DNA of 61,441 nt, counting the filler, from Dugesia japonica (lineage: Eukaryota), in assembly GCA_001938525.1 (NCBI GenBank). It is 5 parts of 5 records of this genome, joined end to end, with 100 filler letters (N's around TTAATTAATTAA, not from the genome) between each part and the next. Parts side by side here need not be neighbours in the genome. Positions count along the whole stretch, not along the records: positions 1 to 12,008 come from MQRL01644164.1; 4 more parts are not named here. One strand, 5' to 3'. The notes under the pieces are model-generated. The model was not told the origin of the DNA and made no database searches. It worked only from the letters and a program-made list of their open reading frames with translations. Below are positions 1 to 61,441 of this stretch, in pieces (position 1 is the stretch's first letter; the number at the start of each line of letters is the position of its first letter). The position numbers were made by a program, and so were the translations under genes.

Positions 1-99
1 GGTGCACGCCATAAGCCTTTCTATTCGGGTTCACTATTTTCCCTTAACTATCAGTGAAAACTTAAATCCGTGATATTTGAAACATTTATTGCAATACAT

Positions 100-482
100 T
101 TACAATTCATCGAGCACGCTAGGGTCTAACCATTGGTCCGGATTGGTGGTCAAAAAGTTGAACGCTCCGATGTCGTTGTCGTCGTTCCATTGTATCCCAG
201 CTGGGTTACCCATCTGGTGAGATAGGTCGGCGATGTACTGCTTCAAGAACTCTACTTTTCTCAGAGGCAATTTCTTGATTTCTGCTTCCAGGATTTTTGT
301 TTGGAGTGCCAAGTCGTTTTGTTTTCGAACTACCAGATCTAACTTTTTTATGAGTTTGTCTCGCTGGGCAAGATGCCTGAGGAGAACCTGCTTGGTTTTA
401 CGTTTTAAGTGGTGTTCTAGCAATAGATGGCGCATGATACGGTAACATCTACGCAAACTAGTCGGGAACATGATTTGAGGCT
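100..482 (-). CDS. Copy A cassette exon 4 (basic, coiled-coil-like, unknown function)
   Basis: Acceptor tttcttttag|AG CCT CAA ATC ATG; open frame to TAA at 100; AATAAA at 85-90; clearly homologous to 9455-9837 and 56472-56860. Confidence 0.75.
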
Positions 483-603
483 CTAAAAGAAAATTATAGT
501 TAAGTCGGTGGGCAGCAAATTCACAATTCGGAGAAACAACACAAAAGAAAAATTATGTAAATAAATAATTTATTAAAGTCAGTCAACAATGCAACGTGAT
601 AAC

Positions 604-963
604 TCAGGAGCGGTTAGTCTGAATACATTTTTCGATCAAAAGAGGGGTCAAAGGGGTAGCGGCCCTCAGCTTCATTATATTTTTCAATAGTTGGTTCTCA
701 CGCTCCTGGTAAGATTTGATGATTTCAGTAAAAGTTTCGACCTGTAATTTCCAAATCCGCTCTTGGTTCTGGGTAGCGTCGATCTCAGATTTAAAAGACA
801 GACATTTTCTGCTTGTAACGTTTAACCTTAGCTTCCGCTGCCGCAGTCTCCGCTTCCCACCACCTTTTGGCGAGTCGATACAAATCCCACGTGAGTTCTA
901 TGTCCTCAATGGTTTCACGTAGCTTTTTGTTCGGGGCCTGAGACCTATTCAGTGAGGAATGCA
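604..963 (-). pseudogene. Copy A cassette exon 3 (one frameshift)
   Basis: Acceptor tattttag|TG CAT TCC; translates HSSLNRSQAPNKKLRETIEDIELTWDLYRLAK...QTNRS*; AATAAA at 569-574. Confidence 0.8.
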
Positions 964-1299
964 CTAAAATACAAACACAGTAATGTAGGGTAGAATTTTA
1001 GCAGATTTATAATTTACAAATGAGGACAATCTGGTCTACCACATACAAAATAGCAAGGGGTGGAGTTTCTAACTTTNNNNNNNNNNNNNNNNNNNNNNNN
1101 NNNNNNNNNNNNNNNNNNNNNNNNNNATCCCAGGTGATCTCGTTACACTGAGTTACCACTCTTACTAATCCTGAGAACTACCAAACCCACTATTATCATC
1201 AAGATAGCAGAAGTTTATCTTATCGAATGTATAAAGGTATCGTATAAAACAACAATAAAGAAGACACCTATTTATTCATAGTTCAAAAGGAAACATGAG

Positions 1300-1655
1300 T
1301 TATTCGTTTTCATTATTCGTGTCGACACTGGGTGCCGTGTTTTCCGCATCAGTTACCCCAGTAGGCTCCCTAACTCCCCAGAGGAGATTGGATATAAAAG
1401 CCTGCACGGCTGGAGCTGGAGTGGGGCGGAAATCTGATATTGGAAAGCTGTTACAAGGGTTCGGTCAGGGCCCGTCCAGGTTTGGTACCGCTGACGTTCT
1501 CCAAAATCGCTGATACGGGTGACAATAGATTCAATTGGAGGCAAGTTGGACCTGTCGATCAAGATGCCCGCGTTTTAATTGTGGGGGTTGTGATGACGTC
1601 GAAATATTATTCTACGGGTTCGTCGATCGATTACTCGTTCCCAGATGGATTCCAT
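1300..1655 (-). pseudogene. Copy A cassette exon 2 (stop plus frameshift)
   Basis: Acceptor ttcttag|CT ATG; MESIWERVIDRRTRRIIFRRHHNPHN*...ENTAP; AATAAA at 1271-1276. Confidence 0.8.
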
Positions 1656-1791
1656 AGCTAAGAAAAATAGAANAAGTGCTAAAATTCAAATAGAATAATT
1701 TTAAAATGAAAAACAATTTAAATTAACAATTGAGAAACAAAGCAAGCTTTTATACAATTTATTTTATCGTATGGGAATTGACCAGCTAAGG

Positions 1792-1974
1792 TTACTCTTT
1801 ATCTAAATCTACTCCATCGTTCGAAGGGAACATTTCGACTAGACAACAAAGATCTGTCTCATCCGGGTGTTCTATTTTTCCTCGGGTCAATAGATGAGCT
1901 ATTAATTGTTTCGTCCGAATAATTTGCCGTTGCTTTCTAATCCACCGTAGGGTTTGATATAATTCTGCGGGCAT
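1792..1974 (-). CDS. Copy A cassette exon 1
   Basis: Acceptor ttctttag|C ATG; MPAELYQTLRWI...HPDETDLCCLVEMFP...VDLD; AATAAA at 1758-1763. Confidence 0.7.
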   Translation of the reverse strand: MPAELYQTLRWIRKQRQIIRTKQLIAHLLTRGKIEHPDETDLCCLVEMFPSNDGVDLDKE

Positions 1975-3361
1975 GCTAAAGAATGAAGTCATTAATCACC
2001 ACTTTCGACTTATGACTTAGTTCCCTAAAAATGAAAAGTAACCACTGACCCTTAATATGACCATGTGTTGTACGTCATTAAAAGATAATACTTAAGGGAA
2101 TGATATTAGTTTGGATTAGAATGATTTGGGCAAGGAAATGACAGTTTGCCAAACATTATCGACAAACTAACCATAATAAGTAGCACCGCAACAGCGAGCA
2201 ACAGAACCCGAATCATATGGGAGTTAATAATATAACGGAGGAAAAATATTCTCCATGGTGCTCAAAAACTAGAGAATAATAATTCCGACATCAGGAACGG
2301 CACCCAGGCGGTAAATAGTAATCATAATCTTAAACTCTATTCAATTGTAATAAGAGGGAGATGTTACTCTGGTTAAATCACCAATACCAACACTGATGGT
2401 ATAATTATATGATGATTGTCGCAAAATTAGTCCTGCAATAAGGCCATTACTAATAGTAATAAAATGATGATTCTAGTATTAAGAAAATCATGAATTATGA
2501 TAATTATAATAATTATAAAAATCTTTCTTTTTTAAACCTCCGCGCTTCACCGTTGCATGGTGATTTTCTCCCCTTGACAACCAATTAGATCGATCTGCAA
2601 CATGTCGGTGTGTAAAGAATTAATCTCGTGTAGGTGTGCGAGAACGGAGTTGAACAACAACACCCAGCCATCATTATGAGCACACAGTCTAACGGTATGA
2701 CTTTCGGGTTGGTGCACATGCAAAGCCTACTGTCAGTTACAATTTTAGGTGATGATTCACTGTCTTTAAGCAAAAATTATGAAATGCGATAGTTATTTCT
2801 ATTCTGTGACAAAAATTCGTGGCCCTTCCATATCAGTAGAATCCAGCCGATCAGAGTCAGGGATCATCACATTAGTGGATGCTTATCATCAAAATCTGTG
2901 GATTTATTATCATTTCGAAATAACTGAATTAATGTATTATTTTGTTAAATAAATTGTTGGAATTTTATCCTTCTACAATCACAATCTTGGCCAAATAAAA
3001 AAAAANNTTGTTATAAAATGATGCACATAGAAAGGAAAACTAGGATGTATTCGACTTTTGGTTTATATTTTTACAACGCAGGTAAGTATAAATTTGTTCA
3101 GATCTCAATTAACCGGATCTTATGATATTTATTTATTAATATTTTCTTTAATTTAATGACCGTTAAAAGGAATTTACCGTAAAATGTCATTTAAGAGTCT
3201 ACTATCATTCAAAGTCAACAGTAGTCTATTTACTACAGATTAATACGTTTAATTGACTAAATAATGAATTGAAATTTTAATATACATATTTTATTAGAAA
3301 TAAATAACATCAAAAATTTTTTGACCATGCAATTCTTTACATAATAAAATAAATATTTTAC

Positions 3362-3910
3362 TTAATATCAATTGGCGAATTTCTGCAATGGGTTTGATTC
3401 AAGATTAAAGTGTTTCTTTCCGCTTTCGAGTGACGAATTTTCAAATAGATTTGAAGTGAATTCTTTGGATTGATTTCCTTGTACGTTGGAGTGCAAATTT
3501 CTTCGTTCGAAGTCAACTAGTATAATGTTATTCTTTTTCTTGATAATTTTCCGATTTCAAATATGTGGTTTGGAATNNNNNNNNNNNNNNNNNNNNNNNN
3601 NNNNNNNNNNNNNNNNNNNNNNNNNNTGTTATTCTTTTTCTTGATAATTTTCCGATTTCAAATATGTGGTTTGGAATTCACAATTTGTTATCAAATTTTT
3701 ATGTAGTACGTTTTATTGTTTTTTAGTCAGTTGTCTTGCTAAATTCAGGGGTCCTTTTATAGAATTTTCTGCACANCCCAACTTCCTCCAGATTCGTTAG
3801 TTATTTTTAGATCAACATTTTCTGATTTTATTGGTTCCAGTACCAGTTTTCTAAAAATTTTTGGAATTTTGGAGTTGCTATTGGCGTCTATTTTTGGACT
3901 GACACATGAT
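3362..3910 (-). promoter_or_regulatory. Copy A promoter and AUG-free leader exon
   Basis: TATAAAAG at 3754-3761, CTAAAAATAA at 3801-3810, CCAAT and CATGTG upstream; donor TTAA|GTAAAA at 3362/3361. Confidence 0.7.
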
Positions 3911-5306
3911 AATAGTGTCTATGTTTTATTTTTATTTTTAGATTTCTTATTGGTCCGATCTTGAGGACCCTGCAGTGACCCTCTGGAAGGTGGTAAGTGT
4001 TTCTTCTTATTAATCTCAACTGCATCTTGATATTTTCTTTCTGTATTTTCTTACCCCGATTCTTTCTGATTTCCTTGANNNNNNNNNNNNNNNNNNNNNN
4101 NNNNNNNNNNNNNNNNNNNNNNNTTTTTTATTTAAAATTAATTAATATTTTTCTTCTGTTAATTAATTATTTTCATACCGATTTTCTTGGTTTTCATTAT
4201 TATTTAATAATTCTTCTTAATTCCCAATATTGATATATGCTAGTTTTATTTACCTGGTTCTCTGTATTCCTCTTGGATTTTATTTCATTCTATTTTGCTG
4301 TTGATTTCATGCATTGCCTTTTATGTTTCAATATTGATAATGGCCTTGCCGTTCTTTTCCGTTGGTTCGGCTTTTCTGCCTTTTTCCTTTTTAACGGGTG
4401 TTCCACCCCAACAATTTTAAAGATTGACGATTTTTAACCACGTTATTTTTCCTTAGCATTAAATTCTCTATCTAATAGTTACTTTGATGTTTAAATTTGA
4501 TTTAAGTTTTTTATTTTCATTAATANNNNNNNNNNNNNNNNNNNNNNNNNNNNNNNNNNNNNNNNNNNNNNNNNNNNNNNNNNNNNNNNNNNNNNNNNNN
4601 NNNNNNNNNNNNNNNNNNNNNNNNNNNNNNNNNNNNNNNNNNNNNNNNNNNNNNNNNNNNNNNNNNNNNNNNNNNNNNNNNNNNNNNNNNNNNNNNNNNN
4701 NNNNNNTTTCCAATAATTGTTTAGAAATTATTTTAATGAATCAATGCTAAATAAAAATTTTCTATTAAAAATTAAACATTAATTAAAAAATACATACGAA
4801 ATTTAATTTGATTTAAAAATATTTCGTAATTTCATCAATAATTAATAAACATTTTCTATTATAATTTTAATTTAACCATAAAAAATTATAAATTTAATCA
4901 TAAAAATATATAATTGAAATCTAACTTACTTTCAAAACACAATTAAACATTTACTTACAAAAGTATAGTTTTAATCAAATTACACATTTAAATTAATCAA
5001 TTCATCATACTTAATTTATTCAATCAATTATATTAGATATTTTCAATAAATAATTACAAATTTGTTTTCAAAAATTATTAATACTTAATAAAAAATTCCC
5101 ATTTTAAATTAAATTTTAATTAAATTTTTACGATAAAAATAAAACACAAATTAAAATATACATGATCTAATTTAATTTTCAAAATTACAAATAGAAAATA
5201 TAGAACAGGATTTAATTAAATACTAATTAAATAGTAAATTTACCATTAGTGATTAGTAAAGACCTGCAACGTTTAGGAAAAACATTGATAACTAAAAATC
5301 AAAGTA

Positions 5307-5378
5307 AGCAGAGCACTGATAACAGAAATCTACTCGGCAAAGCACTGATAACAGAAATATACTCGGCAGAGCACTAGT
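5307..5378. repeat. ~29-bp tandem repeat, about 2.5 units
   Basis: GCAGAGCACTGATAACAGAAATCTACTCG repeated with few substitutions. Confidence 0.8.
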
Positions 5379-6011
5379 ACACAGAGCTTTGATAACTGAG
5401 GTCAGGTAAAGAGTAAAATTTCATTTAAATTCATCTAAGAAACTAACCAAAATTGACTAACCGAATAAATTATCATATTTTTATGTTCCTCGGGAACTCC
5501 TTAATTAAGTACTTGTTTTTCAATATAACTTTTATCTATAAGATTTGATGGTTTTAGGTTAATTTATTTGCAATCAGTGTAGAATTCTCTATCAAATAGA
5601 CAGGTTTTTAATTAAATTTGAGATACTTTNNNNNTTTTTAATTAATTATTGAGAAATAAAAACATTTAACTTTGTTCAAAGTAATTTGATTTGACAAATT
5701 TCTACCGTGTATATTTTTGATCAGTAAAAAATATTTAATAGTACTTGGATCATTAAATTTGGATGAAAATTATAAAAAATAAATTTTTACTTGTGTCGAT
5801 TAAGCGTAATTCGGATTTTTGACTACGTTTTTACGAATTTTCTTTGTAAAAAATAAGTTTGATGATTTTAGGAGATGTTGTTCGTGATCAGTAAAAAATT
5901 TGGGTAATCAAAAAACCAAAGCTCTAACATCATTCGGAGAACTTCGGCAGAGATTCGAAGCTTGAGCCAAAGACGAACCTGAAATTATAATTAAAACAAA
6001 GACACAATCGT

Positions 6012-6535
6012 CATGTGTCACTCTAAAAATAACAACCAATTACGGCACCAAAACTCGAAGAAAAGTTTAGAGAATTGGCACCGGAACCAAAATCGAAAAG
6101 CCACTCTAAAAATAACTGACAAATCTGAAAGAAGTTGGGGTGTGAAAGAAATCCTATAAAAGAACCCCTGATTTTAGCAAAAAAATATATACAAAACCAA
6201 CTACAAATTTTGCATATTCACATACGAAAAAACTCTGTGAAAACTTATTTGTGGACTTTACAAATCAACGGATTGTCAAGGAAATTAACTGTTACAATAC
6301 TAATATTCGGAAGAAACTTATTAATTGGTTAACGCGCATCAATCGTATCGAAACCTATCTGTGAATTAGAGTAAATTAAATTTCTATTTGCGTTGCGGAT
6401 AATTTTCTTTCTTTTAAGAAAAAGGAAAATAAAGGAATACCTGATCCAGGAATCAAATCCGGAAATTGCCAACTCAATACTAATTATTTACAAAAGAAAA
6501 CCCGTTGCAGAGATCCTTTAGTTTAACAGCACGAA
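6012..6535 (+). promoter_or_regulatory. Copy B promoter and AUG-free leader exon
   Basis: CATGTG 6012, CTAAAAATAA 6023 and 6106, CCAAT 6036, TATAAAAG 6155-6162; no ATG in 6181-6535; donor CGAA|GTAAAA at 6535/6536. Confidence 0.75.
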
Positions 6536-7429
6536 GTAAAATATTATTTTGATTATGTTAAAATGATATTATATGAAAAGTGGAAATATTATTTATTGTA
6601 ATAAATTCATATATGCAAAGAATCTTAGGTTATTAATTTTTCCCCGTAAATATATTAATTACGGTTGATAAGTGATTGACAAAGTTTGAATGAAAAATAA
6701 ATCTTTAAATAAAAATGTTTTAGACCTATTCGTTATTAAATGCAAAAAAAGGAAAAAATGGAAATAATTCCTCATCCCTCATTAAATTGAATAAGTTATT
6801 AACCAATAAAAATAACATAACTAAGCTATACTCTATTTGAATAAAATTACAAATATCAGTGCCTAAAATGAAAGTTGAATCAGTTTATTTTTTGTTGTGC
6901 CAATAAATTTAGGGAACAGCCAGACCAAAATGTTCATCTGCATTGCTATGATTTAAAGAAGGAACAACACTGTAATTACCACCGTTTATTTAGCAAAAAT
7001 AATAACTTACCTCCATTAGTTTAAAACGTAAATAATCCTAGAAATGTCCGTAATGAAAAAATCAATGAATATGCCTAACATTTTTTTGTATCAGCTAAAT
7101 TCAACCGGCAGCGAATTTGATACTCTAACCCAGTGATTAACTATCTAGTTCCGTAAATTTTCCAAAAACACCGAGCTATATCATTTAAATCGCGAGCTGC
7201 AGTTAGCAGGTTGATCTAAATTCATATTATTAGGTGGTGTGTATAGTCGCTGAAAATTAAAAAACATAGCATGGATTTAATGCTTGATGCTCAGTTTGGT
7301 TTCTAGCCAAACACACCTACAACAGGATGATATGCCCACACACCAGCCTAATAAAATTCGTCATAGTATATTCCTAAGCAACACAATGCGCATGAAATCA
7401 AATTACATAAATTCAGAAAGAAATTAATT

Positions 7430-7960
7430 TTTATTATAATTAATATGATTGTTATTTTTATTAATTTTATTACTATCAATACTAAGACTATTAATATTAC
7501 CGATATTATCCTTATGGTTGGGAGTACTAATTTTATGGTTATGGTTGACGAAATTAACAGTATTAATACTACTTTAATTGCCGGTAAACTTAGAATTAAT
7601 TCAACTATTATTTTTACTATCTTTAACAGTACTATCATTAGTATGAACATCGCTCTGATTACTGTTAAAATCATTATCAATATGGTTGTTATGAACATTA
7701 CTATTGGCCATATGGGTAGTTTCATCGTTGAAATTATGATCAGTAATATTATTACCATTATCATTAACATGCTCAAGGTGATGTTTATTCCGGGTAGGAT
7801 CAAAAATACTACGTTTAGCCCTACTATCTTTATGATGAGCGTTATAAATGTTATTAAGATTCTAATATTGACCAATGGGTCTNAATTAAAATTATTCAGT
7901 AAACTAGTATCGTGGTAGTGGAACGAGTCCTCCTATTAATAATAGTCGGCAATAGTAATG
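7430..7960. repeat. Degenerate ATT/AAT-periodic low-complexity block inside the element
   Basis: 3-nt periodicity gives Ile-rich ORFs on both strands; similar blocks at about 2040-2520, 58390-58860 and 60654-60850. Confidence 0.7.
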
Positions 7961-8026
7961 AAATTTTTTTTTGTAGGAGTTTGAACCACGAGTTATGATT
8001 TAACATTTGTTCTCTTTATTTAGTTC

Positions 8027-8221
8027 ATGACACCCGAATTGCGTCGTACTCTCCAATGGATAAAACGACGATGTCAAACTGCTCGATTAAGACAGTTTAT
8101 CGCCCATCTATTAACTAAGCGAAGAATTGAACACCGGGATGAGACAGATCTTTGCTGTTTCGCGGAGATGTTCCCCTCAGTGACTCCAGTAGATTTAGAT
8201 GCGGAGAGTACGCCTTTCTAA
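8027..8221 (+). CDS. Copy B cassette exon 1 (64 aa)
   Basis: Acceptor tatttag|TTC ATG; AATAAA 8260-8265; homologous to 1792-1974 and 60898-61092. Confidence 0.75.
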   Translation: MTPELRRTLQWIKRRCQTARLRQFIAHLLTKRRIEHRDETDLCCFAEMFPSVTPVDLDAESTPF

Positions 8222-8370
8222 GCAGGAGTGTAATCTGCGAATTACTGTTAATTGTCTAAAATAAACTGATGATTTGATTAAATCTATTTGTTGTTTATTT
8301 CTGTTACCTTTAATTAATTTAAAATGAAATTATATATTATAATTTAAACAAAATTTCGGTTATTTATAGA

Positions 8371-8724
8371 ATGGAATCTATATGGGAAATGGTAGTGGAT
8401 AGAAGAACTCGTCGAATAATCTTCCGAGGACATCACAACCCCCACAATCGGGACGCGGGAATTTTGGCCGACAGATCTAATTTGCCTCCTGTAGAGTCCA
8501 TCGTCGAGCCCATAAGAGACTTTGATGAGCGTCAGCGGTACCAAGCCTGGACAGGCCCTCATCGCACCCTTGCGACATCCTTTCATTATCAGCCTTCCAC
8601 TCTAATTCCAGCTCCCGCTGTACAGGCCTTTATCACTAACCTACTCTAGGGAATAAGAGAACCCTCGGGTAGCGAAGACTCGGAAAATACCGCACCCGTG
8701 CCGGATTTACCAACTCCTCCTTAG
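8371..8724 (+). pseudogene. Copy B cassette exon 2 (Arg-rich N-terminus; TGG>TAG at 8647)
   Basis: Acceptor tttatag|A ATG; homology to A and D continues past the internal TAG (GIREPSGSEDSENTAP); AATAAA 8746-8751. Confidence 0.8.
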
Positions 8725-8969
8725 TGATTTATATGTGTGACGTATAATAAAATAATCTGGTTGTCCTGGTCTAAAATATATGTTCGATGTTTTGTATAAT
8801 TCTTAAGAGATTTTTCGTTTGTTTCTCATTTTCAGATTGTTTTCTAGGTTTTCAAGTCGATTTGGGTGATCTAGAACTTGGTAATCAGATTTGTAACTAC
8901 TGTGTCTGTGAAGAAACATAAAGTTATGAGAGCTATTTTCGATAATATGTATATGTTTTTTCTTTCTAG

Positions 8970-9328
8970 TGCATTCCTCGTTCAACCGTCCTTCAGCCCC
9001 TACTAAGAAAATCCGAGATACCAGTGAGGACCTCGAATTCACTTGGAATTTATATCGGTTAGCCAAACGCCGATGGGAAACTGAAGTAGCCGCGGCCAAC
9101 AGTAAGCTCCTACGCTATAAGAAAAAATGCGTCCTCTTTAAAAAAAAAGCAGAAGCCTCCCATTCCCAGGATCGCATTTGGAAAAGACAAGTAGGGTCTT
9201 TCTCGGAGATGATCCGGTCCAGCCATGACCGAGAAAATAAACTGGTTAGCGATATTTTACTTCTCCAGGAGAAAATCCCTCTCGAGCCGTTGATGATAGA
9301 GAGGGGCACTCAGACCCCTCGAAGCTAG
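8970..9328 (+). CDS. Copy B cassette exon 3 (coiled-coil-like, frame intact)
   Basis: Acceptor tttctag|TG CAT TCC; the ORF-track GTG start borrows the G of the AG; AATAAA 9355-9360. Confidence 0.8.
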
Positions 9329-9454
9329 TCATATAGCAATATTGTTTCTTTGTTAATAAACTTATTGTTAAACTTTTGGCTTCCGTTATTGTCTTAATGT
9401 TCTCTTGAGTTTTGTGGTCGAACGCTTGTATATTTAACTTATTTTATTTTTCAG

Positions 9455-9837
9455 TGCCTCACATCCACTTTCCCAATAACCTCCGTAGGTGTCACCGCGT
9501 CATGCACCGCCTGTTGGTTGAACGACACTTAAAACAAAACACCGATAAATCATTGATTAAATACCTGAATCAAAAAGATCGATTAATTAAAAAGTTGGAC
9601 CAAATCGTGAGAAAACAAAATGACCTTGTGGTGCCAATAAAAGCTTTATAAGAAGAAAATAAACTATTGTTACAGCGGAAAATCGATTTCCTCAAGCAGT
9701 ATATATCTGACTTGTCCCGACAGCTAGGAGACACTACCTGGGCCCAATGGGACGATAATGACGATGTCGCTGCTTTTAGTGTCTTGGGAACGGATCCGGC
9801 TCGGTGGTTAGACCCCGGAGCTTTGGATCTAATGTAA
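9455..9837 (+). pseudogene. Copy B cassette exon 4 (internal TAA at 9649)
   Basis: Acceptor tttttcag|TG CCT CAC; homology continues to WLDPGALDLM*; AATAAA 9847-9852. Confidence 0.8.
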
Positions 9838-9909
9838 ATGTAATGAAATAAAAAATGTATAGTCCACGTTGTAGTTCCTCAAATATGTTTGTAATAACAG
9901 GGAAAGTAA

Positions 9910-10082
9910 TGAACCCGAATACAAAGGTTTGTGGGTGCGCACCTCCCATTAAGCAAGGGGTCAACCACCACAAACTGAAAATCTGCCTTGGGGCGGTAGA
10001 TCAAATTCTTAAAAGGGTTCCCCTGAGGGCTGTTTTTCCCTAGCCACCTTTTTCTTCGTTCAATTCAGGTGGGACCCCAACA
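9910..10082 (+). other. Conserved structured terminal block of the element (U5-like)
   Basis: Conserved in B, D, E and partly A; several helices with compensatory changes. Confidence 0.65.
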
Positions 10083-10299
10083 GATGTAAAAAACTCGACA
10101 AAAAATTTTTCAAAAATTTTTGAAATTTCAGATGTTTTCCCGGATTCGCATAAAAATTTGATTTGAAAATTTTAAAAATCTGAAAATTTAAACAAGAATG
10201 ATCTAATTTCACCAATTTACCACAAAAGTTTAAAATAATTTAAAAAACTTGAAAATTTAAACACATTCTACTTTTTCCATGAATTTCCGTAAAAATTCA

Positions 10300-10690
10300 T
10301 CCCAAACTGACCAACCCCGAGGAAATAATTCACCAATAACGACCAAAAATTAGCTAAACTGACCAGTTCCGAGGAAAATTTCAGTCAAATCGCTCAAAAA
10401 TGAACCAAATTAACCATTCTCGAGTTAAATAATTGATCAAACGCACAAAGATTACCTAAAACCGACCAAGTTTGCCCAAATTGTCCACTCACGAGGAAAT
10501 AATTGACCAAATCATCCAAAAGTGAACCAAATTAACCATTCCCGAGGAAATATTCGACTAAATTCCCCTGAACTAACCAAAATTTGACCTTATTCGAACT
10601 CATTGAGGAAACTTTGGACAAAAACCACCTAAAATTACCAATCCCGAGGAAATATTCGGCCAATTTCACCTTAACCAATTAAAACTTGAT
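10300..10690. repeat. Degenerate ~55-bp tandem array (ACCA..CCCGAGGAAA..TTGACCAAA core)
   Basis: CGAGGAAA-like core recurs about 7 times at roughly regular spacing. Confidence 0.7.
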
Positions 10691-11319
10691 TGATTAAAAA
10701 GCCTATAAGATTTTCCCAACTAAATACACAGGAAAAATTAAACGCCAGTTAATCCAATTACGTAAAATTTCACCGATAAAATTAATCTCATGACATAATT
10801 TGTGTGCAAAAAATTTTCCTAACTAAATACACANGGAAACAGTAACACTAAATTAAGTAATATTACCTAATGATACAATTTATGATGTAATTTTTAAATT
10901 CCCAACTATATGCAATAGGATTAAATTTCATTACGTCATGGCGGGGGGGCTTCGCACACATGTGGTGTTAATTCCCATTATCCCTCTACTTGGAGAAAAT
11001 AATTAAAATAATTATGCGCATATTTGTTTGAATATTAAAGCTTTTCAAAGTAAATTTTTTCAATTCTGACAAACATTGTTCCAAATAAATGATTGGTAAT
11101 GAGGATGTTTTTCTGGTTAATAGACAAGAAAGCTATTATTAAACTACTTCATTGTCTTCTAGGTTTGACTCACACAAAAAATAGAATAGCTTATAAAAGA
11201 CTGGATTGATCTCACCTTCAACTAAGCAGTTATATAATGGCGCTATCACATCTGAAAACTGGCAGTTCGTTCACAGAGCCAAATCAAGTAACCTTCCAGT
11301 AGGGAGCAATTATTGAATG

Positions 11320-12008
11320 TCTTTCAGCTGTTTTACGTTTCAAGTGCCTCTCTATTAACAGTCGGCGCATTATTCGGTGGCATCGTCTTAGGCTATTGGG
11401 AAAATTAATATGTGGCACTAAAATAAATAGGACAGTAATGACATTCATATCTTGCTTAGGACATTAAATAAAGGTAAAAGTAAAAAAATAATTGGACGAA
11501 TATAAACACTAAGAAAGTGATTTTATTAAACCGAGTTTTAACAGATTTTATGGACGAGAACTTTGGACACCTTTGTCTACCATAAGCGGTGTCAGTGGCA
11601 TAGTTTTTTTTATTCAGAATGTCGCCCACCAGTTTATTCTTTCGGTCTTGGTAGGACCAGATAAGCTCGGTAAGTGATTCTAATTGGACTTTCCAGACTC
11701 TTTCTTGACGATGCGATGCTTCGGCTTCTGCTTTGAAAGCCAAGCACTTCTTTTTATAGCGCCGAACTTTGGCACCAGCAGATGCAACATCAGCTTCCCA
11801 ACGATGCTTAGCCAATTTATAGAGATCCCAAGTGATTTCGGTTTCATCACTGGAATCTCTCATTTTCTAAGTAGGTGCTACCGCTCGGTTTAATGACGAA
11901 TGCACTGAAATACAGAAAATTAAACCACAGTTAAACAGAAATTAAATGGACACAAAAAATCTCAAGATTTCTATACTGTGATAATACCACGAGGTTTATC
12001 CACTATAT
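11320..12008 (-). mobile_element. Element copy C (fragment: exon 3 and start of exon 4)
   Basis: tttcag|TG CAT TCG at 11904; ttttag|TG CCA CAT at 11417 (PHINFPNSLRRCHRIMRRLLIERHLKRK); AATAAA 11522-11527. Confidence 0.8.
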
Positions 12009-20776: not shown

Positions 20777-22169
20777 GTAAGATTTTTTTATGAAAATGTT
20801 TTTTTTAAATTTTTGGAAATTTCAGAAAAATTTAATTTAAAAAAGTTTTGAATTATTAATTAAATTAATCAAGAGAGAAAAAAAATCCTAACTTTTAAAC
20901 TTTTAAAATCAAATTTATTTGTTTTTTTATAATATTTATTCACTATTTATTGATGTAATTTTAGGAAATTTTAAAGATGTTAAACACTAATTAAATAGGA
21001 AATACTTTATTTATATTTAAATCTTCAAAATTAATTTAATAACTTGTGGCTGGCTTAAATCGATTCTACATTTCTTATGATTTATAAATTTTATTTTCAA
21101 AAGCTAACGTCTAATAATTTCGATAATTCTTAAATCGCTGTCAATCCTATAAACAAATTACGATAGCATTAACCTATCTAACAACCAATTTCTTTGCAAC
21201 GGGTTTTTATCTGTAATTTCGTGCCTTAGAGAGTTGTTTCTTATAATTATATTAAAAATAATTATAATAATTTATTATAAATTATAAAATGAATTCAGTT
21301 CTATAATTTTCTTGAAATTATTTCGAGTTAATTAATTTTACCAATTTATAAAATATTAGGAAAATTTAACTTTCTTATATAACGTTCTTAGATTAATTAT
21401 TATTTTCTTGGTTTTCAAATTAACTCTACTGAATAAACAAAGAAAATAAATATAATTTTATTCTTGCTAGTCAGAAAAATTATCTTTAAATTAAAATATC
21501 ATATTATATAGATAAACCATTTCGATTCAAGTTAATTTAATTATGTTCATTACCAGATTCATATNNNNNNNNNNNNNNNNNNNNNNNNNNNNNNNNNNNN
21601 NNNNNNNNTTAATTAATTAANNNNNNNNNNNNNNNNNNNNNNNNNNNNNNNNNNNNNNNNNNNNCACTAATAGTACTGCATTCATTCTGTACATAGTCAT
21701 TTAATATGCTTAATTTGTCTACATTTTGTCAATTTTCACCAATTTCCCACTATTTACCCTATTTTTAGTGATTATCTATCGTTTACCCATATTTAACAAT
21801 ATTTAGATATATTATTCATCAATTGCGCCTATTTTATCATCTTTGCTACTATTTCCAATTCGGTTCAATCTTTAAAGACTGATATATAGGGATAAAAGGG
21901 GCTATTTAGTGAGTAAGATCTGGTATGGTTTGCTTCTTATTTACGATAATATAATCAATTCAGTATATTTATATTTATAGTTATATAAAAATTTATATAT
22001 TTTTTTGTAAATATATAAATATATAAATATAAAGAACTAAATAACATGATAAATAATAATTAAATACCTCTTATTTTTCAACTGAACAGGATTTGTTTTA
22101 ATCAATTTTTGAGAAGAGGTATTGTTTTATTTTAAAGTGTCCCTCCGTAATTTGTTCAGCTGTAGTGTA

Positions 22170-23595
22170 GATTGACCAATGTAACTGGAGCGATCTAATG
22201 ATACTGACTCTTTATTCATTAAAGCCGCTATCAAGTCCTCATTAATCTTGATAGATTTCCGGAAGCTAGGTTTTGATGCATATGTTACCAACTTCTTACT
22301 TGTAATACATATTCACAAATCTACCATGTTCTTCAATTTCTCAACCAATTTTCCATACAAACTGTTGTTTAAAAATTTGTAATACGCTTTCTCAAGATTG
22401 GTATTACATTTTGCTCTAAATGCAATATTGGTTACAATATAATTTTAAAAGATGCGATCTTGAGTAAATCTTACCGCTTTAAGAACCACATTAACTTCAA
22501 TTTTTAATCTCATGTACATTTGTAGCAGTTTTCAATACAGTGCATAATATTCCTTAATGTAATGAGTCCACATTAATATTTTTACTTTACTACCTGGAAG
22601 GCATTAATGTTTTGCTGCTACTGGTAGATCCTTTATAAAGTCATGGATTTCTGAAGGGATAACTATGTTTACCTCCATAGTGTATCCGAACGATAACGCA
22701 ACCAGATCCATCGTCTTATATTCTTGTAATACTGATTCTAAACTAGTATGTACCCAGTCAAAGTCTCAATATAGTAATTTTTGACAAAGAGCCCACACAT
22801 ATAGATTGTTAATATCTATATATAAAAAATATGTGTTTTCACTAGTAGTGACATGATGTTTGTTGATAAATATCAACTCACTCTTATTTTACCTTAAAAA
22901 ATAGTAAACATGTCGTTGTCCTTCAACAGTTCTACTGATTCCTTTAATAACATCAAAGCTAATGCCCCACTGATACCCAGTAATACAAAAATATTCAATG
23001 GCTCTTATTTGTTGTGTTATAAAGATTTCAATCTAAACTGTTTGAAGAAATTCTCCAATAAATACACATCCAATTTAAAATAAACCAACATATAATCCAA
23101 AAGGTTCTTAAAATCAGATATTCTCATTTCTTTGGTATATTCTCCCTATGTGATCTCATTCCATCTTGGTGGCATTTGTGTTGTTTCAACTTAAGAATGT
23201 AAACTATATGAATAATTGTATAGAAACTTCCCCTTTGACATTGTAATTATTCTATCTTTAAATTTCTATAATGTCAAAGATGTCTCTTTTAAGTACTTTA
23301 CGGCAGAATCTGGTGAGGAGTTTAAAAACTGATATGAATCTATAAACTTAATTACTGGTAATTAAGTCTCATGCACTATTAAGCATAGCAACCTTTCCGT
23401 TGTTGTTGAAATGCAATTCAGGCTCCACTGTGAACATTTATTTAATTCAAATTTCAAAATATGATGAAAATCATACCCTATTAAATTGTGAAATACCACT
23501 GGTAGTTGCATTTTCACACTTCTGCTCCAATTACATATAGAATATGCTGCGCCCAAATACTAATCAGTAAAGTGATTATAATCTCTAACTGGTGC
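22170..23595 (-). pseudogene. Polinton/Maverick protein-primed PolB fragment
   Basis: PVVFHNLIGYDFH (ExoII), YIDINNLY and FLNNSLYGK motifs; many lesions. Confidence 0.85.
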
Positions 23596-23599
23596 AGTC

Positions 23600-25180
23600 A
23601 ATGGCGGATTCAAGGGAACTATGGTTTATCTTGATGACATCCTGATATTTACGAAGAATAAAGATCAACACTATAAAGTCATTAAAAAAGTATTGATGGA
23701 AATAATGAAGGCTGGTTTAATAATTAATCTAAAAAAGGTGTCAGTTTCTTCAAAACAAAATCAAGTTTGTTAGACACATAATTAATCAAGATGGTGTAAA
23801 AACTGATCCGTCTAAAAAAGAAGCAATGAAAACATTTGGAAAACCTAACGGTGTGAAGACGTTACAAAGTTTCTTGGGAATTTGAATTTATTAAAGTACG
23901 TTTATAGAAAACTACATAAGAAAGTCAAAAATATTAGAGCAGTTGTGTAGCGGATCAAGCAACAAGAAATTAGAATAGACGGATAAAATAAACGATAGTT
24001 TTAAGGGTCTAAAGAAATCTCTAATGACTGCACTAATATTGTGTTTTCCGGACATAAACAAAGAATTTATATTAGATACAGATGCTAGCTTTAACACAAT
24101 TGGAGCAGTATTGTCACAAAAAGATAAACAAGTAAGAGAAAGAGTTGTTGCCTATAGATCACACTCAATGACAAGTCATGAAAAAAGATACTGCATTAAA
24201 CTAAAGAAATTATTGGCGGTTTAGAATTTCTCTATGCATTCCAAACATTACTTGTACGGTAGAAGATTTACTCTTAGAACAGATCATAAAGCTCTAGCTT
24301 TCATGATGACTAGAAAGAAACCAATAACGTCACAATTTCAGACATCGATTAATTATCTGAGCAGTTTAGATATGGTTTTAGAATATAGAAAAAGAATTCA
24401 ACATGGTAATGCAGATATGTTATCTAGACCAAGATGTGAAGTATGTATACAAGGTCAAATGTCACATGAAAATGCCAAGAAAGAGAAAATTAAAACGAGA
24501 ATACTAAACATGATTGAAGTTACCAATTTATTTGTAATGATATTCACAGATATATGTTGACCAATGCGTGAAACAAGTGGACGTTAAAAATACATTCTTG
24601 GAATAATCGACCAGTACAGTAAATATCCTTTTTCTATACCATTGTCTAGGCAAGACAAGGAAACAATACGAAAAGCTATTTTTGAAAAGTGGATATTGAG
24701 ATTTGGATGTCCAAGAGAGATAAGATTAGATTGTGGAAAAGCTTTTGAATTCAAAGATAGTTTGCACTGAAATTAGATAATAAACTTTGCTTTTTGATTC
24801 CCTATCATCATAATGCAAACGAACAAATTGAAAGACAGTTCAGGACAATTCAAGATTTAATTAATGCAAAATTTCAGGAAAGAATGATAACAGGTTGAGG
24901 AGATCTTTTTAAGAAAATAGAATTTACAATAAACGCAACAAAACAGAAGTCGACTGAAAAGAGCTCATCTGACATCGTTTTTGGAAAGAGGATTAGCAGA
25001 GAAAAGTGGTAAAAGTCAGACATTTCAGATAGAACTAAGGAAAACATATCAAACCTGATTACTAAAAGAGAATTCAAAGTTACCGATGTTGTTTCCATCA
25101 AGGTAAAAAAAATAAAAATCAAGATAGATTTGAAGGATCTACGTGATTTATAACTATTTTTACCAAGAAAATTGGTGGAT
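23600..25180 (+). mobile_element. Ty3/gypsy pol fragment (RT-RNaseH-integrase)
   Basis: VYLDDI, LDTDAS, TDHKAL, HGNADMLSR, IIDQYSK motifs. Confidence 0.9.
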
Positions 25181-30050: not shown

Positions 30051-30729
30051 ATAAAAAATTGTGAATAGTATCTCTCCATAGTACTATGGCAGTCGCCTTT
30101 ATGAGTCTGATTTGCACAATAATGTTTGTAGAATGTACAACATTCTGGAAAAAATAAGTTGTATTACGTTTATTAAATTATTAAAAGTTCATTTAAAAAT
30201 TAACATAAAATAAATTATAAAATAAAAACTTACTTTTATCATAAATAGGAGCATCAATAACAACCATCAACTGTTGACAATAATTTTACTTTAATAAAAC
30301 TCTTCCTCTTAATACCTCTTCCACCTTGATTTTAATTATTATAAATCTAAAATAAAATTAATAATCATTAAATAATAAAATTAAATTCACATTATCCATC
30401 ATTAAACTTGTTGAATTCATATTTTTATTATCGTTTATATTGTTCATAAACTGAAAGCGTATAATAAATAATAATAAAACTAATGCAAATACTTTACCTT
30501 TTCTTCGCTCAACAATGTTCTCAATATGCTTTTATTATTATTGTTTATAACCTGAAAATTATATATATATATTTATAAATTAAAGAAATATAAAAAATAA
30601 CAAACTTACGTATCAAAATTATCGCTTTAAACAACAGTTTTTTGAAAATTATGAAGAATTTTAAAACGTAACTACTTTTAAAATGTCAAATTAATTTTTC
30701 ATTTGCATTTGTATGCATGTATTTTAATT

Positions 30730-39249: not shown

Positions 39250-39640
39250 ATAAACATTCTGAAACTATGGCTTGTTTTATTTCATAAATCTTAGCTTCAT
39301 TCTTTCTTATACCAGCTGTGCTCACCGTATTTCCTAAAAACACCAATTCTATTTGGTCCATTTTATGCTTTCTGTGTTTATTCTCAAATTTGAGTCCTTA
39401 AATTAAGCATATTATCAGATAAATTTGGCGGTAACATCAAGGGATGCATTTAGTATAACGTAAGTTCATGTTCAGTAAAAGGCTGTTCAGATTAGCAACA
39501 TCAATGTTACGTTTCCAGAAATTGATGCATAACACACTAGAATGTTTGATTTTTAAAGGAATTAGTGTATATTTAGAAGATATTTTTGTGTATGAGATAT
39601 CAATTAAAGATCATAATAATATGTTCGAGAAAGTTTTCCA
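39250..39640. mobile_element. Short gypsy RT fragments on both strands
   Basis: FQKLMHNTL..VYLEDI on plus; LGNTVS..GI on minus. Confidence 0.5.
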
Positions 39641-55260: not shown

Positions 55261-56471
55261 TATACCTTTGTGATCCTGCTTTTCTGATCACGTATATATC
55301 ACATGTAAAATGGAAGAATCAATTTGAATATCAAATAAAGGAAAATGAGAATTTTTTCATAAAATAAATATGCTTAGAAAGTGTGCACTGAGAGTGAATC
55401 ATTAATGGAAGGCAATTTACAAGACACTAAAAATCCACCAGAAATATTATAATTGAAAAGCGCATTAACTGAAGAACTCTTAAAAATATTGATGGATGAC
55501 GATGAAAAACAATTATTTTTTGGCTGAATAAATGACTGAGAGCAGTATTGAGTTGTGCTTTTTCAATAATTAAGTTAAAAATTAAGTTAATTTCGACTTA
55601 ATTGTTCTCGATAACAACTTCATGGAAGTGGAACAAGTTTTGTTTGATTCTGGAATTCTCATTAATGTTGGGGTGAAACACTTCAAGTTAGAAGGAAATT
55701 GAAGCCAAGGGCTCAAAATATAAACCAAAACGGGTGGGTGAATCAAAAAAGGAAACCCATTAGGAACAAATAGCGTTAGAAGAAGTAAAATAAAATTTCA
55801 TGGCAATCGAACTAACGATTAACCTATATCACAATAGAAGAAAAATGGGTATAATGATCTTCAATGAGCAAATGCAACCTTCATTGAAACAATAATTAGA
55901 AAAAACTATTAAATAATATTAAATACAAGGAAAAGTAAATTTAAACAAGAAGTAATTAATGAAGAATTATTAATTAAATTTTACCTGAAATTGAAACTAA
56001 ATTAGGCGAAAATCTGTTTTTTGTGGATAACTTCTCTCAGGAAAACCAGAGAGAGTTCGAGTAAGAAAATCTAAAAGGAAAATAATGAGAAGCATTGGAA
56101 TTTCGTAAGAAGAAAATTTTGCCACCATCAGAGAAGCCACCATAAGGGTTGAAAGAATGGGCCAATAACAATACAAGAAATAAAAATAAAACAAAGACCT
56201 GATCATCACATGTCCCTCCAAAGACGCATTATTGTTGGGATCCCACCTGAGTTGAGTGAACAAGATTGTGGCTGGGGAAAAGACAGCCCTCAGGGGAACC
56301 CTTTCAAGAATTTACCCTGACGTCCCTATGTCAGGTTTTCAGCATATGGTTGTTGACCTCTCTCTTAATGGGAGGTGCAAGCCATAAACCTTTCTATTCG
56401 GGTTCATTATTTTCCCTTACCTTATACCAAAACTTAAATCAGGGATACTAGAAACATTTATTGCAACACAT

Positions 56472-56860
56472 TTACAATTCATTTAATACACTAGGGTCCA
56501 ACCACTGGTCTGGGTCGGTGGCCAGAAAATTGAATGTCGCGATGTCATCGTCATCGCTCCATTGAATCTCAGTTGAGTTACCCATCTGGCTGAATAAGTC
56601 GGCGATGTACTGCTTTAAGAAGTCTATTTTCCTTAGCAGTAGTTGCCTAGTTTCTACTTCTAGGGCTTTTGTTTGNACGGCCAAGTCGTTTTGTTTTCGG
56701 ACTATCAGATCCAGCTTTTTTAAGAGCTTGTCCCACTGGGTAAGATGCCTAAGAAGAGCCTGGTCTGTTTTGCGTTTCAACTGGTAAAACTTGTAAAAAG
56801 AACTTGTAAAAATTTCAAGGTGGCATCTTTTCAAGCTAGTTGGGAACACGATTCGAGGCA
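56472..56860 (-). CDS. Copy D cassette exon 4
   Basis: ttttag|TG CCT CGA; open frame; AATAAA 56457-56462. Confidence 0.75.
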
Positions 56861-56984
56861 CTAAAAGAAAATCATAATCAAGTAGTGAACACCAAATTTA
56901 TAATTCGGAGAAAATAAGTAACAGGAAAACTTTATGCAAGTGAATCATTTATTAAAAACAAAAGAAATAATGCAATATCATAGT

Positions 56985-57428
56985 TTAGGAGCGGTTCGTC
57001 TGAGTGCCTTTAACGATTAGGAGTGGAACTAATGGGGTAGCGGCCCTCAGTTTCAAAATATTTTCCATTAGCTGGTTCTCACGCTCTTCATATGATTTGA
57101 TAATTTCGGTAAACGTTTCGACCTGTAGTTTCCATACTCGCTCTTGACTCCGAGTGGTTTCAGNNNNNNNNNNNNNNNNNNNNNNNNNNNNNNNNNNNNN
57201 NNNNNNNNNNNNNTTTCCATACTCGCTCTTGACTCCGAGTGGTTTCAGCCTCGGATTTAAAAGAAAAGCATTAACGCTTATAACGTTTAACTTTAGCTTC
57301 TGCTGCTGCAGTTTCTGCTTCCCACCGCCTTTTAGAGAGTCGGTACAGATCCCATGTGAGTTCTATGCCCTCACTGGTTTCGCGTAACTTTTTATTAGGG
57401 GCCTGGGATCTACTCAATGATGAGTGCA
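56985..57428 (-). CDS. Copy D cassette exon 3 (interrupted by assembly gap)
   Basis: tttcag|TG CAC TCA; ends QTNRS*; AATAAA 56948-56953. Confidence 0.75.
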
Positions 57429-57716
57429 CTGAAATACAAACATAGTAAAGGTTGGTATACTCTTACCAGATTTTTAATTTAAAGGAAACACTAGGTAGCC
57501 TGGTCTACCATGGCTAAAATGAACAGTGAGTGGTGTAGGTATTATTAACTCGGTTTAACAACATTACCTTGAGGTATTATTATTTCACTTTTTAATGTAG
57601 TCTATAAAGTCCGATAACATTTTGTTATTATAGCCGAAATTTATTTGACTCGACATAAAGACAAAAATTAACAACAAGTAAAACGCTTATTTATTCATAT
57701 CAGAAGACCAAAAAGA

Positions 57717-58073
57717 TTAATGAGGATCAACATTATCGTCAATGTTAGGGGCGGTATTTTCGACATCAGTTACTCCGTTCGGTTCTNTGACCCCCCAGAG
57801 AAGATTCGAGATAAAAGCCTGCACGGCGGGAGCAGGAGTTGGAGCGGAAGGCTGATACTGGAAAGATGTTGCGAGAGTGCGATTGGGGCCTGTCCAGTTT
57901 TGATATTGTTGTCGTTCCCCAAAATCTCTTATACGAGATACTATAGATTCTATCGGAGGCAGATTGGACCTGTCAGTTAAGTCCCCTGCGTCACGGTTGT
58001 GGGGATTGTGGTGCCTTCGAAAAATTATGCGGCGGCTTCGTCGGTCTATGACCCTTTCCTACATGGCTTCCAT
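57717..58073 (-). pseudogene. Copy D cassette exon 2 (TGG>TAG at codon 5)
   Basis: ttcttag|AA ATG GAA; otherwise full-length frame; AATAAA 57690-57695. Confidence 0.8.
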
Positions 58074-59630
58074 TTCTAAGAATAACAAAAGAAAATAATT
58101 ATTAAACTCATATAACACAGCATCAAGATATAATAAATAATTTATTTAAATAGTCGATACACAACAAGAGAATTTCNNNNNNNNNNNNNNNNNNNNNNNN
58201 NNNNNNNNNNNNNNNNNNNNNNNNNNNNNNNNNNNNNNNNNNNNNNNNNNNNNNNNNNNNNNNNNNNNNNNNNNNNNNNNNNNNNNNNNNNNNNNNNNNN
58301 NNNNNNNNNNNNNNNNNNNNNNNNNNNNNNNNNNNNNNNNNNNNNNNNNNNNNNNNNNNNNNNNNNNNNNNNNNNCATAGCTACAAGGTGAGATTATTAA
58401 TCGCAATGTTTAATTCAGGACGTGGTTTCCAAACATAAAAAGTTATTCCTGACTGCCAATATCAACATGAGGTTTGGAACCCAGCATAAGGGATAATTAA
58501 GTGGCTATTATCAATGGAGATCATAATAACCTAATTGAACAATAATAATAGTATTAAATCACATAGCGCTATGATAATTAAACGACCGCAAAATTAGTTT
58601 AATATTACTAATAAAATGGTTTCTATACATACGTGAAAAGCTAGTGATAACAATAACCATCCTAATCTCGAACATTAATCCCTGGAATAATATTGGGTAT
58701 AGGGTTACTATCCCTGATCATCTAAGGGGTATAGTGATTCGTTATAGATGAAGTGTCAAGATTTCACTAGACTGATTTGCGCTACTAGCGTTGCTAGCAG
58801 TAGTAATAATAGACACTCCCGAGATTACTATTGCTAATAAAAGGAAAAATTATCGCAATTAAATTTTTAAAAAAATCTTGTTATTTTTGATCTTTTAAAT
58901 TTACAGGTGTTATCATCGCCTAGTGACCGTTTCCTTAGTAAATGGGTCATTATTACTTTCGGCGAGTTTGTGTGTATANATACCACGTCGCTGTAGGTGT
59001 GTAAGAGGATTAAAATTACACCCAAATATCAAATGGATAATATGATCGTCTCACGGACTCTACACACAATCTCATGACGCAACTAATCAGGCCAATTCTG
59101 CGATTATTTCTAATTCAACCGATATTCTATCGATGAGAAAATAATGTTTTTATTTCTGTCCCAACAATGAATTTGGAGAAATATNNNNNNNNNNNNNNNN
59201 NNNNNNNNNNNNNNNNNNNNNNNNNNNNNNNNAGATTCTTAAACCCAACCGAAGTAACACTTTTTTTTATAAATAAATGGTTAAACCAGGATTTCTTTCT
59301 TTCTCATAAAAAAATAAACTGTTCATTTTTCTAGTTGATACTATTATATAATTGTGGTTTTACGACTTAGCTTGATTATATTTTACACGATGTTTTATTT
59401 ATTTTAACGAGCAATGGGACGGAGCATGACTTCATTCTTTTCGTTTTAGGTAATTTACTAGTTATTGGGTCTAAAAATTTTTTTTATAATAAAAATTAGC
59501 ATTCAAATAACCTAACAGTTCCATATAAGATATTATGTGATAAAACCACAAGTAAAAAATTTTAATACCCATATATTTATTAAGGTACTCATATTTAAAC
59601 ATTTTTTTTTCAAACAAAATAAAACTTTAC

Positions 59631-60175
59631 TTTTTTGAGAATAAATTTAGGAATTTCTGCAACAGGTCAAATGGTATTGCCAATATTAACTGTAGTATTT
59701 CTTCGAATAAGGGCTCTCTCCTGTGGCTATTTTGCTAGGCTGAATGATACTTTTGTGGCGATTTTCTTTTGTCCTTGAAACAATATTAATCAATACCAAC
59801 TAAATTGTAAATTGTTTTTTAAGGTACTTCGGTGAGAATAAATGTTTCTTGTCGAATTNATGAAAGTTCCGTTAATTAGCGACTAAAATTATTTCTTTTG
59901 TAGTTGTAGCTGATAAAATTATTCCTGTTGAAGCTGATAAAAATATTTTTTCGTTATAGTTGAGGAAAATATTTTGTTAAGTTTTTGTGCGTTTTTGTTG
60001 CTAAAACAGGGGTCCTTTTATAGAATTCCTGAGACACCCCGACTTGTTTGGCATTAGCCAGTTATTTTTAATTTAAAATGACACGTTTTCATTGGCGTTG
60101 ATGCCACTTTTCTGGAATTTTGCAGACTTTTCTGCGATTCCGTTGGTGGTTATTTTTGGATAATCAGGTGAGCTT
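59631..60175 (-). promoter_or_regulatory. Copy D promoter and AUG-free leader exon
   Basis: TATAAAAG 60015-60022, TTAAAAATAA 60062-60071, CACCTG upstream; donor AAAA|GTAAAG at 59631/59630. Confidence 0.7.
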
Positions 60176-60897
60176 TTGTTCTTTGTTTTATGTTTATTTT
60201 CCAGGTTCTCATTGGTTTAATCTTCCAATCCTTGTGACGGTCCTCTTGATGGTCGCAACGTTTTCGGACTAAGAAATTTCGTTGCCCGATATCAATCCCG
60301 ATTCAAATTTTTTATCTACGAGTCCTGGTGACTTTCTGAAGTCAAGTTATTCGAAGAAAACAGATTTGGGTTTCATTTTCATTTATTTTTCTCGCTTAAT
60401 TAATTGATATTTTCTTATAATTAAATATTTTATTGGGTATTTTCTTTTCTTTTTTATATAATAAATTTTAATTTCTTCTAATTGATTAAAGTGGATGGAT
60501 GCTGATTTTGGTTGAACAGCTTTACTTTATTCATTCCTTAATGGGTTTCCGACCCCATTCTATTTATCTTCTTATTTCAACCATTTTTTGTGTATTTTCC
60601 ATTTGTAACGATGATAATTTGCCTTCTTTTTAGTGGTGTGTTTCATCCCAACATTATTATTAATGTTAAGATGATACTATTATCATTAGGATTATTATCA
60701 TTAAGGGTAATATGATTAGGAGTTTTCATTATGATTATTATTGAATATTACTATAAATCCCTTAATATTATTATCGCTCTCGTTGGGATTATCACATACA
60801 TTATTATCCTGGGGGTTAGGAGTCATTATTGCAGGCCATTTTCATTGCAATAGATGTTTTCTAGATAGTTAAATAAAATTAAATATGTTTAAGGTAG

Positions 60898-61225: not shown

Positions 61226-61441
61226 TGTTGGGGTTCCACCTGAGTTGGAAAATGTTGTGACTGGGGAAAAAACAGTCCTCAGGGGAACCCTTTCAAGAAT
61301 TTGAACCCTACCGTCCCTATGGTAGGTTTTCAGTTTATTGCGGTTGACCTTACTCTTGATGGAAGGTGCCCACCAATAAACCTTTTGTTCGGGTTCTATA
61401 TTTTCCCAATAATATTTAAACTATTTTTATTAATTAACGTT
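61226..61441 (-). mobile_element. Element copy E, 3' terminus
   Basis: TGTTGGGGTTCCACCTGAG...CAGGGGAACCCTTTCAAGAA matches the ends of D and B. Confidence 0.85.

Follow-up and report, generated by a model that had tools for sequence, protein, structure and literature searches.

Start codons probably completed by splicing from an ATG-free leader in a multi-gene repeat family of Dugesia japonica

Introduction

How can a protein be made from an open reading frame (ORF) whose conserved N-terminus opens without an ATG in the DNA? This question is raised by a repeat family in a stretch of Dugesia japonica DNA (assembly GCA_001938525.1) of 61,441 nucleotides (nt), filler included, here called the window, in which five parts of five genome records are joined end to end and positions 1 to 12,008 come from MQRL01644164.1. 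Self-comparison of this AT-rich eukaryotic DNA (29% G+C) revealed one family with copies X (5950-10082, + strand), Y (1..4413, −, with its TGTTGGG start at 4413 and running off the window), Z (56233..60653, −) and the partial copy W (11240..11904, −, holding exons 3 and 4 only and adjoining a contig linker), together with the fragments V and Z'. Copies Y, X and W lie on different pieces of the joined window from V, Z and Z'. The original prediction, in which X, Y, Z and W were called B, A, D and C, held that an ATG-free leader ends in an A which splicing joins to a TG at the start of two exons, so that these proteins can be made only from spliced mRNA. Our results suggest that the first part of this claim is likely to be right, and that the two exons belong to a larger set of genes served by the same leader.

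Results

Probable split start codons of exons 3 and 4

In copy X, exon 3 (8970..9360, +) opens with ag|TG into a 119-codon ORF (ORF3) with AATAAA at 9355, and exon 4 (9455..9852, +) opens likewise into an ORF of about 127 codons (ORF4), with a stop at 9649-9651 and AATAAA at 9847. The opening reads ag|TGCAY in all four copies of exon 3 and ag|TGCC in three of the four copies of exon 4, just as had been predicted, and over both exons combined ag|TG is found in 7/8. Among acceptor-like sites in the window TG follows in about 10% (34/334), a background count that includes the exon 3 and exon 4 sites themselves.

Protein-level constraint sets in with the codon that directly follows the acceptor. 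Over codons 2-13 the identity between copies at the three codon positions was 0.72/0.83/0.35 for exon 3 and 0.78/0.76/0.39 for exon 4, while the stretch 21-60 nt upstream of the acceptor gave 0.36 and 0.31, respectively. In-frame stops are present 12-24 codons upstream of the exon 3 and exon 4 starts in 8/8 copies, and the first in-frame ATG downstream in ORF3 is at codon 81 in X and at codon 99 in Z. Because the upstream stops are so close and this ATG is so far away, the conserved N-termini of ORF3 and ORF4 must receive their start codon from elsewhere. The G of the TG is retained in 8/8 copies where third positions are otherwise saturated, and since the third position of a Leu or Val codon would not retain G in every copy, Met fits as the junction codon. 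From the sequence we consider A|TG, an AUG made by splicing, to be the best reading of the ORF3 and ORF4 start codons, and a probable one. A simple exon duplication behind the two A|TG starts was rejected, as ORF3 and ORF4 are unrelated (profile probability 0.5%).

The leader, its putative promoter and its predicted donor

A putative TATA box (6155..6161, +, in X) lies in a promoter block that is conserved in X, Y and Z, and the leader of X (6181..6535, +) would start about 25 nt behind it. The predicted splice donor AA|GTAAAA of X spans 6534..6541 (+) with its GT at 6536; on the minus strand the donors of Y and Z are at 3361 and 59630. In X and Y this GT is the last one ahead of the first downstream ATG. 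The three leaders (355 nt in X, 374 nt in Y and 364 nt in Z) contain no ATG at all, whereas a first-order Markov model predicts a total of 12.5; no other of the 64 trinucleotides is as strongly depleted. The comparison with shuffled sequence that the original prediction called for bears this out, as dinucleotide shuffles gave probabilities of zero ATG of 0.0006, 0.0004 and 0.04 in X, Y and Z, and 32 of 10,314 slices of 380 nt across the window were free of ATG. Ambiguity is confined to an ATN at 59859 in Z and to a 50-N gap in Y (3577-3626), which is flanked by an exact 51-nt duplication and is probably an assembly overlap. Behind the donor ATGs are frequent, also as predicted, with the first at a distance of 19, 19 and 28 nt and with 10, 7 and 9 within 400 nt in X, Y and Z, respectively.

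Alignments of the leaders between copies score just 2-5 standard deviations over shuffles, and because they barely align, the three ATG-free leaders come close to independent cases. Two islands survive in this divergent sequence, aligned in 3/3 leaders and both part of the earlier claim: the AA|GTAAA end and the motif CC.RTTGCAGA. In X the longer form of the motif, CC.RTTGCAGA.AT, is at 6501..6514 (+). It lies 21-26 nt before the donor and is a candidate enhancer or extra acceptor.

Further exons and the gene-cassette layout

Two further exons, which like the TG...CA ends described below were absent from the original prediction, precede exons 3 and 4. In X, exon 1b (8024..8265, +) consists of an acceptor, its own ATG at 8027, an ORF of 64 amino acids (ORF1b) and AATAAA at 8260, and exon 2 (8370..8751, +) of an acceptor, its own ATG at 8371, an ORF of about 117 codons (ORF2) with one stop at 8647-8649, and AATAAA at 8746. 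The exons are at 1975, 1657, 963 and 482 in Y and at 58380, 58075, 57428 and 56860 in Z (both −). All four ORFs open at a pyrimidine tract plus AG and have AATAAA behind them; in ORF1b and ORF2 the ATG stands 1-3 nt inside the acceptor. AATAAA was found no more than 45 nt from the stop at 11/11 ORF ends, as compared to a background of 13%, and at 2/3 further ends.

The four ORFs are real genes under purifying selection. The ratio of nonsynonymous to synonymous substitution rates (dN/dS) was 0.06-0.25 in the 6 of 15 pairwise comparisons where it could be computed (0.25 for ORF1b), and in the other nine the synonymous sites were saturated, with a proportion of nonsynonymous differences of 0.13-0.31. 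Because dN/dS is low where computable and synonymous sites are otherwise saturated, the copies are distant subfamilies that evolved under selection before they decayed. In a DNA-like sequencing run (X1), 20-78 distinct contigs map to single ORF positions, and therefore the family has many variants.

Between the donor and the four exons of X there are 39-63 ATGs (57 before exon 3 and 63 before exon 4), and thus all four ORFs need splicing, whether their start codon is split or not. The prediction that the exon 3 and exon 4 proteins come only from spliced mRNA is therefore true and adds little. What the split codon would add is that only a donor ending in A can be used, and that reinitiation from read-through RNA is lost.

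Ahead of exon 1b in X is an Ile-rich hydrophobic stretch (7348..7932), stop-free on both strands over 183-194 codons, which may be a fifth, fast-evolving gene. Its copies could not be aligned as protein on either strand, and stop-free frames on both strands were seen in X only.

Predicted proteins

None of the ORFs matched a Pfam family at threshold, and no homologue of ORF3 or ORF4 was found at similar length among 5.8 billion proteins. An ORF2 profile gave four hits among 1.84 billion representatives, of which one, P0001 from a 512-bp ENA contig, is a distant homologue of 94 amino acids with the same Met start (E 8e-9, 41% identity to ORF2). The other three are repeat proteins and were rejected as not credible. 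Hits in the ESM Atlas were weak, no match to ORF2 was found among PDB sequences and phage records, and the structural model of ORF2 has a predicted local distance difference test score (pLDDT) of 46. ORF3 is predicted to form a single 84-residue helix (pLDDT 83) followed by a tail of low pLDDT. This tail ends in RGTQT/KGTQT, with TQT in X and Z, IQT in Y and VQS in W. According to PMC6607443 such an end is close to the optimal site for the dynein light chain LC8, although many TQT peptides fail to bind. The ORF3 tail is a possible LC8-type site. The products are likely accessory proteins.

Ends and identity of the element

Copy Z, which has both ends, is 4,421 bp long and bounded by TGTTGGG...CCCAACA, a 9-bp terminal inverted repeat; in the family TGTTGGG was found at three starts and CCCAACA at three ends. 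These TG...CA ends are integrase-type. For a solo LTR of Ty3/gypsy (Metaviridae) a target-site duplication of 4-6 bp would be expected; the flanks of Z, the one copy with both ends, share a 4-bp match with a chance of 0.008 for random 4-mers, but they are AT-rich and part of a deleted relative. The repeat itself appears to contain both a promoter and a poly(A) signal, as TATA and AATAAA are conserved. Outside the coding parts, conservation is highest in the last 185 nt of the element (terminal block of X at 9899..10082, +, ending in CCCAACA), which are predicted to fold into stem-loops with five helices. In this fold 7/38 pairs were changed on both sides and 0/500 shuffles scored as high, a modest result from three sequences whose structure was derived from the same three. 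To that modest degree the fold matches what an R/U5-like RNA would show. No Rfam match was found.

The site CAG|GTGGRA (10066-10074, at 56246 and at the end of Z') is the best-scoring donor-like site common to three copies; it lies 13 nt before the element end inside the terminal stem and could splice into downstream sequence. By eye, the terminal block (9955-10050) resembles the TATA promoter block (6095-6185), which would imply a second promoter near the 3' end. This likeness was not significant (profile E 3.6) and was rejected. Four viral and two metagenome locus scans revealed no outside locus of the element, and their one 19-residue hit was rejected as chance.

Surrounding sequence

Region 55666-61441 contains nested copies of the family, with Z and Z' (61226..61441, −, the 3' end of a further copy that runs off the window) in or beside the oppositely oriented and internally deleted copy V. 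The 5' part of V (55666..56232, +) has a TGTTGGG start, and past Z the same family continues in a piece at 60654-61225 (+). The window is full of decayed transposons, including mariner and Tc1 transposases, three gypsy pol regions and polB-like pieces. Among these a gypsy element at 47079-51004 (−) is decayed and complete, with long terminal repeats (LTRs) of about 100 bp that are 93% alike, reverse transcriptase, RNase H and integrase, and related pol pieces are at 23582-24557 (+) and about 36900-39300 (−). As a gag-pol partner for the family it was rejected, since it has LTRs of its own. A different repeat at 35027 / 34864-34322 (−) shares its 10 terminal bases with the element family; a gag-like ORF follows 160 nt later (PNMA match, E 0.07), and the upstream DNA is unlike the element. 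Two related polB-like fragments, 66% alike (22169-23591 and 27271-30083), we take to be Maverick-type. A degenerate 51-52-bp tandem repeat at 10300-10740 is very abundant in run X1 and has reads from the RNA runs on both strands. Several of the N gaps lie between exact duplications (3526-3677, 57129-57248) and likely reflect assembly overlaps. The linkers between the joined parts (at 12009, 21565, 31628 and 52037) are artificial: in each, a 12-base cassette that puts stops into all six frames is set between two blocks of 44 N.

Discussion

Taken together, our results favor, with somewhat better than even confidence, a joint reading in which the repeat is a likely solo LTR of gypsy type, whose ATG-free leader is spliced to any of four acceptors and thereby provides A|TG starts for two of the ORFs. 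A single transcript would begin at the TATA promoter, each mRNA would use one acceptor together with the poly(A) site that follows it, and one protein per mRNA would be translated from the first AUG met by the scanning ribosome. ORF1b and ORF2 would supply their own ATG just behind the acceptor, whereas in ORF3 and ORF4 the acceptor would fall inside the codon and the first base would be the last A of the leader. The split codon probably arose by drift of the acceptor; it would now bind ORF3 and ORF4 to the leader donor and prevent their translation from read-through RNAs.

A number of observations weigh against this reading. The donor is weak, with A at −1 and A at +5 in place of G at both positions, and on a rough matrix it is outside the 14 best GT sites of each copy. 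Position −3 relative to the spliced AUG holds C in X, T in Y and A in Z, a purine in 1/3 and a poor context in the other two. Exon 4 of Y opens with ag|AG and has an in-frame ATG at codon 5, as the original prediction had recorded, exon 4 of W has an in-frame ATG 10 codons upstream, the sole case of an ATG between stop and acceptor, and codon 17 of ORF4 is Met in three of four copies. AATAAA is not diagnostic by itself, because seven of these hexamers occur in the X intron ahead of exon 1b. Every copy is broken, by one or two stops or frameshifts each. No primer-binding site, polypurine tract or gag-pol was seen beside the six element ends, no pair of the repeats encloses them in the window, and the 4-bp match at Z could be chance, with Z sitting inside a deleted relative. 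In the RNA check, 4/24 runs were mapped on 1-12000 at 80% likeness, two of them raw RNA runs; run X10, whose profile tracks that of the DNA-like run X1, was left out of the RNA evidence. Depth in the two raw RNA runs was 0-1.4x over most element bins, and among the joints listed for them, which lie in the flanking 51-bp repeat, none was an element splice joint, at this near-zero depth and with 433 further joints besides those listed. The leaders of active relatives are too divergent for their reads to map across. The proposal that leader A and TG make an in-frame AUG is thus supported by the onset of constraint at the acceptor, the upstream stops and the retained G, while the weak donor and the lack of a joint among those listed count against it.

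The same splicing could take place without an LTR. The repeat would then be a non-autonomous element, complete with its 9-bp inverted ends and mobilized by a borrowed integrase-type transposase (Ginger-like or gypsy), or else a piece of a small DNA virus that has integrated. Ginger1 and Ginger2 have TGT ends, a 4-bp target duplication and introns, so the TG...CA ends and the flank match of Z also suit Ginger2 (PMC2836005), and introns are more easily retained by a DNA element. The missing primer-binding site, polypurine tract and gag-pol fit as well, although the first two are absent from solo LTRs too. In contrast, the terminal inverted repeats given for Ginger elements in that text are 40-270 bp long and accompanied by a transposase, the ORFs here match no enzyme and no transposase or viral hallmark was found in Pfam scans, and the covarying 3'-terminal stems of the sense strand would fit a life cycle with an RNA stage. 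We regard this explanation as unlikely. A giant solo LTR of a gypsy-type retrotransposon is the identity we lean towards, on balance, and that this LTR works as a self-contained unit resembling the adenovirus late genes, with an AUG-free leader, four to five acceptors located at or within start codons, separate poly(A) sites for the individual genes, and orphan accessory proteins that are strongly selected, is a tentative proposal that falls somewhat short of even confidence.

The weak donor and the lack of a listed RNA joint would also fit a gene in which neither exon 3 nor exon 4 is the first coding exon. Each would be an internal or terminal exon spliced in phase 1 to coding sequence further upstream, with ORF1b, ORF2, the hydrophobic stretch and gag as candidates; TG would then close a Leu, Val or Met codon, and splicing would create no start codon. 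GT sites that score better than the leader donor do exist in each copy, but they differ between copies; the GT columns common to the copies in ORF2 and ORF3 score −7 to +2, and with the same rough matrix no well-scoring donor common to X, Y and Z was found within the upstream ORFs. The retained G argues against it as well, since a Leu or Val third position should drift when third-position identity is as low as here, and ORF1b and ORF2 terminate with their own stop and AATAAA. This makes an upstream coding exon improbable. Less probable still is a two-part leader, in which TTGCAG is an acceptor and a mini-exon of 21-26 nt bears the final A, or a short transcript per ORF that starts at GUG or a downstream AUG: the conserved motif contains YAG, a branch-point-like sequence precedes it in Z and the genomic junction codon is GTG in 7/8, but the motif lacks the T-rich tract seen at 14 other acceptors, no common donor lies upstream in the leader, ATG is missing from the whole leader and not just from its end, and the mini-exon version would still yield A|TG.

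An AUG-free leader spliced to any of several separately ended ORFs would have a counterpart in the adenovirus major late unit, where one AUG-free leader is spliced to many separately polyadenylated ORFs, and protein coding inside an LTR occurs in complex retroviruses, as in the sag gene of MMTV. Both are analogies in gene expression and imply no homology.

Splice-made start codons are already known from the env gene of Drosophila gypsy (springer subclade, insect endogenous retroviruses), in which splicing joins AT from a non-coding 5' exon to a G at the acceptor (PMC2585583; PMC12992720; bioRxiv 2023.08.03.551782). There a single gene downstream of pol is served by AT|G, whereas the element described here has A|TG at two ORFs and an intact ATG at two more, shows no similarity to env, and holds its cassette inside a TG...CA unit. 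An Env-F protein downstream of pol, as in errantiviruses, was not found, as ORF3 and ORF4, called helical proteins, are about 120 amino acids long and without Pfam match at threshold. What would be new is that one leader feeds several separately ended genes. The Ty3/gypsy elements Ogre, with LTRs of 1.9-6.5 kb, and planarian Burro, of >30 kb, resemble our element by description in having kilobase-long LTRs and accessory ORFs of unknown function, but in the review of these elements the extra ORFs are internal, and it describes no spliced multi-gene cassette in the LTR (PMC6431247). No Burro LTR structure was found in passages of PMC11410931 and PMC13309565. In the MDG1 group the small accessory ORFs sORF1 and sORF2 lie close to the 5' end and are separated by an alternative poly(A) site; they are unspliced and outside the LTR, whereas here an acceptor precedes each ORF (PMC11952523). 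We found no description of a multi-gene cassette inside a TG...CA unit or LTR in the literature, in a search that excluded Repbase and the original Burro and Woot papers, where it may be annotated.

If the joint reading is true, gene regulation in the style of complex retroviruses would extend to an invertebrate retrotransposon. If the LTR does work as a unit like the adenovirus late genes, every solo LTR would spread a working multi-gene cassette, and unspliced RNA would be kept for packaging; should the family have no gag-pol partner, it would instead be a new kind of enzyme-free mobile element. Four orphan protein families would be added, one with a possible dynein-light-chain site. Since two of the genes have no ATG in the DNA, they illustrate a class that is overlooked by ORF callers and in repeat annotation.

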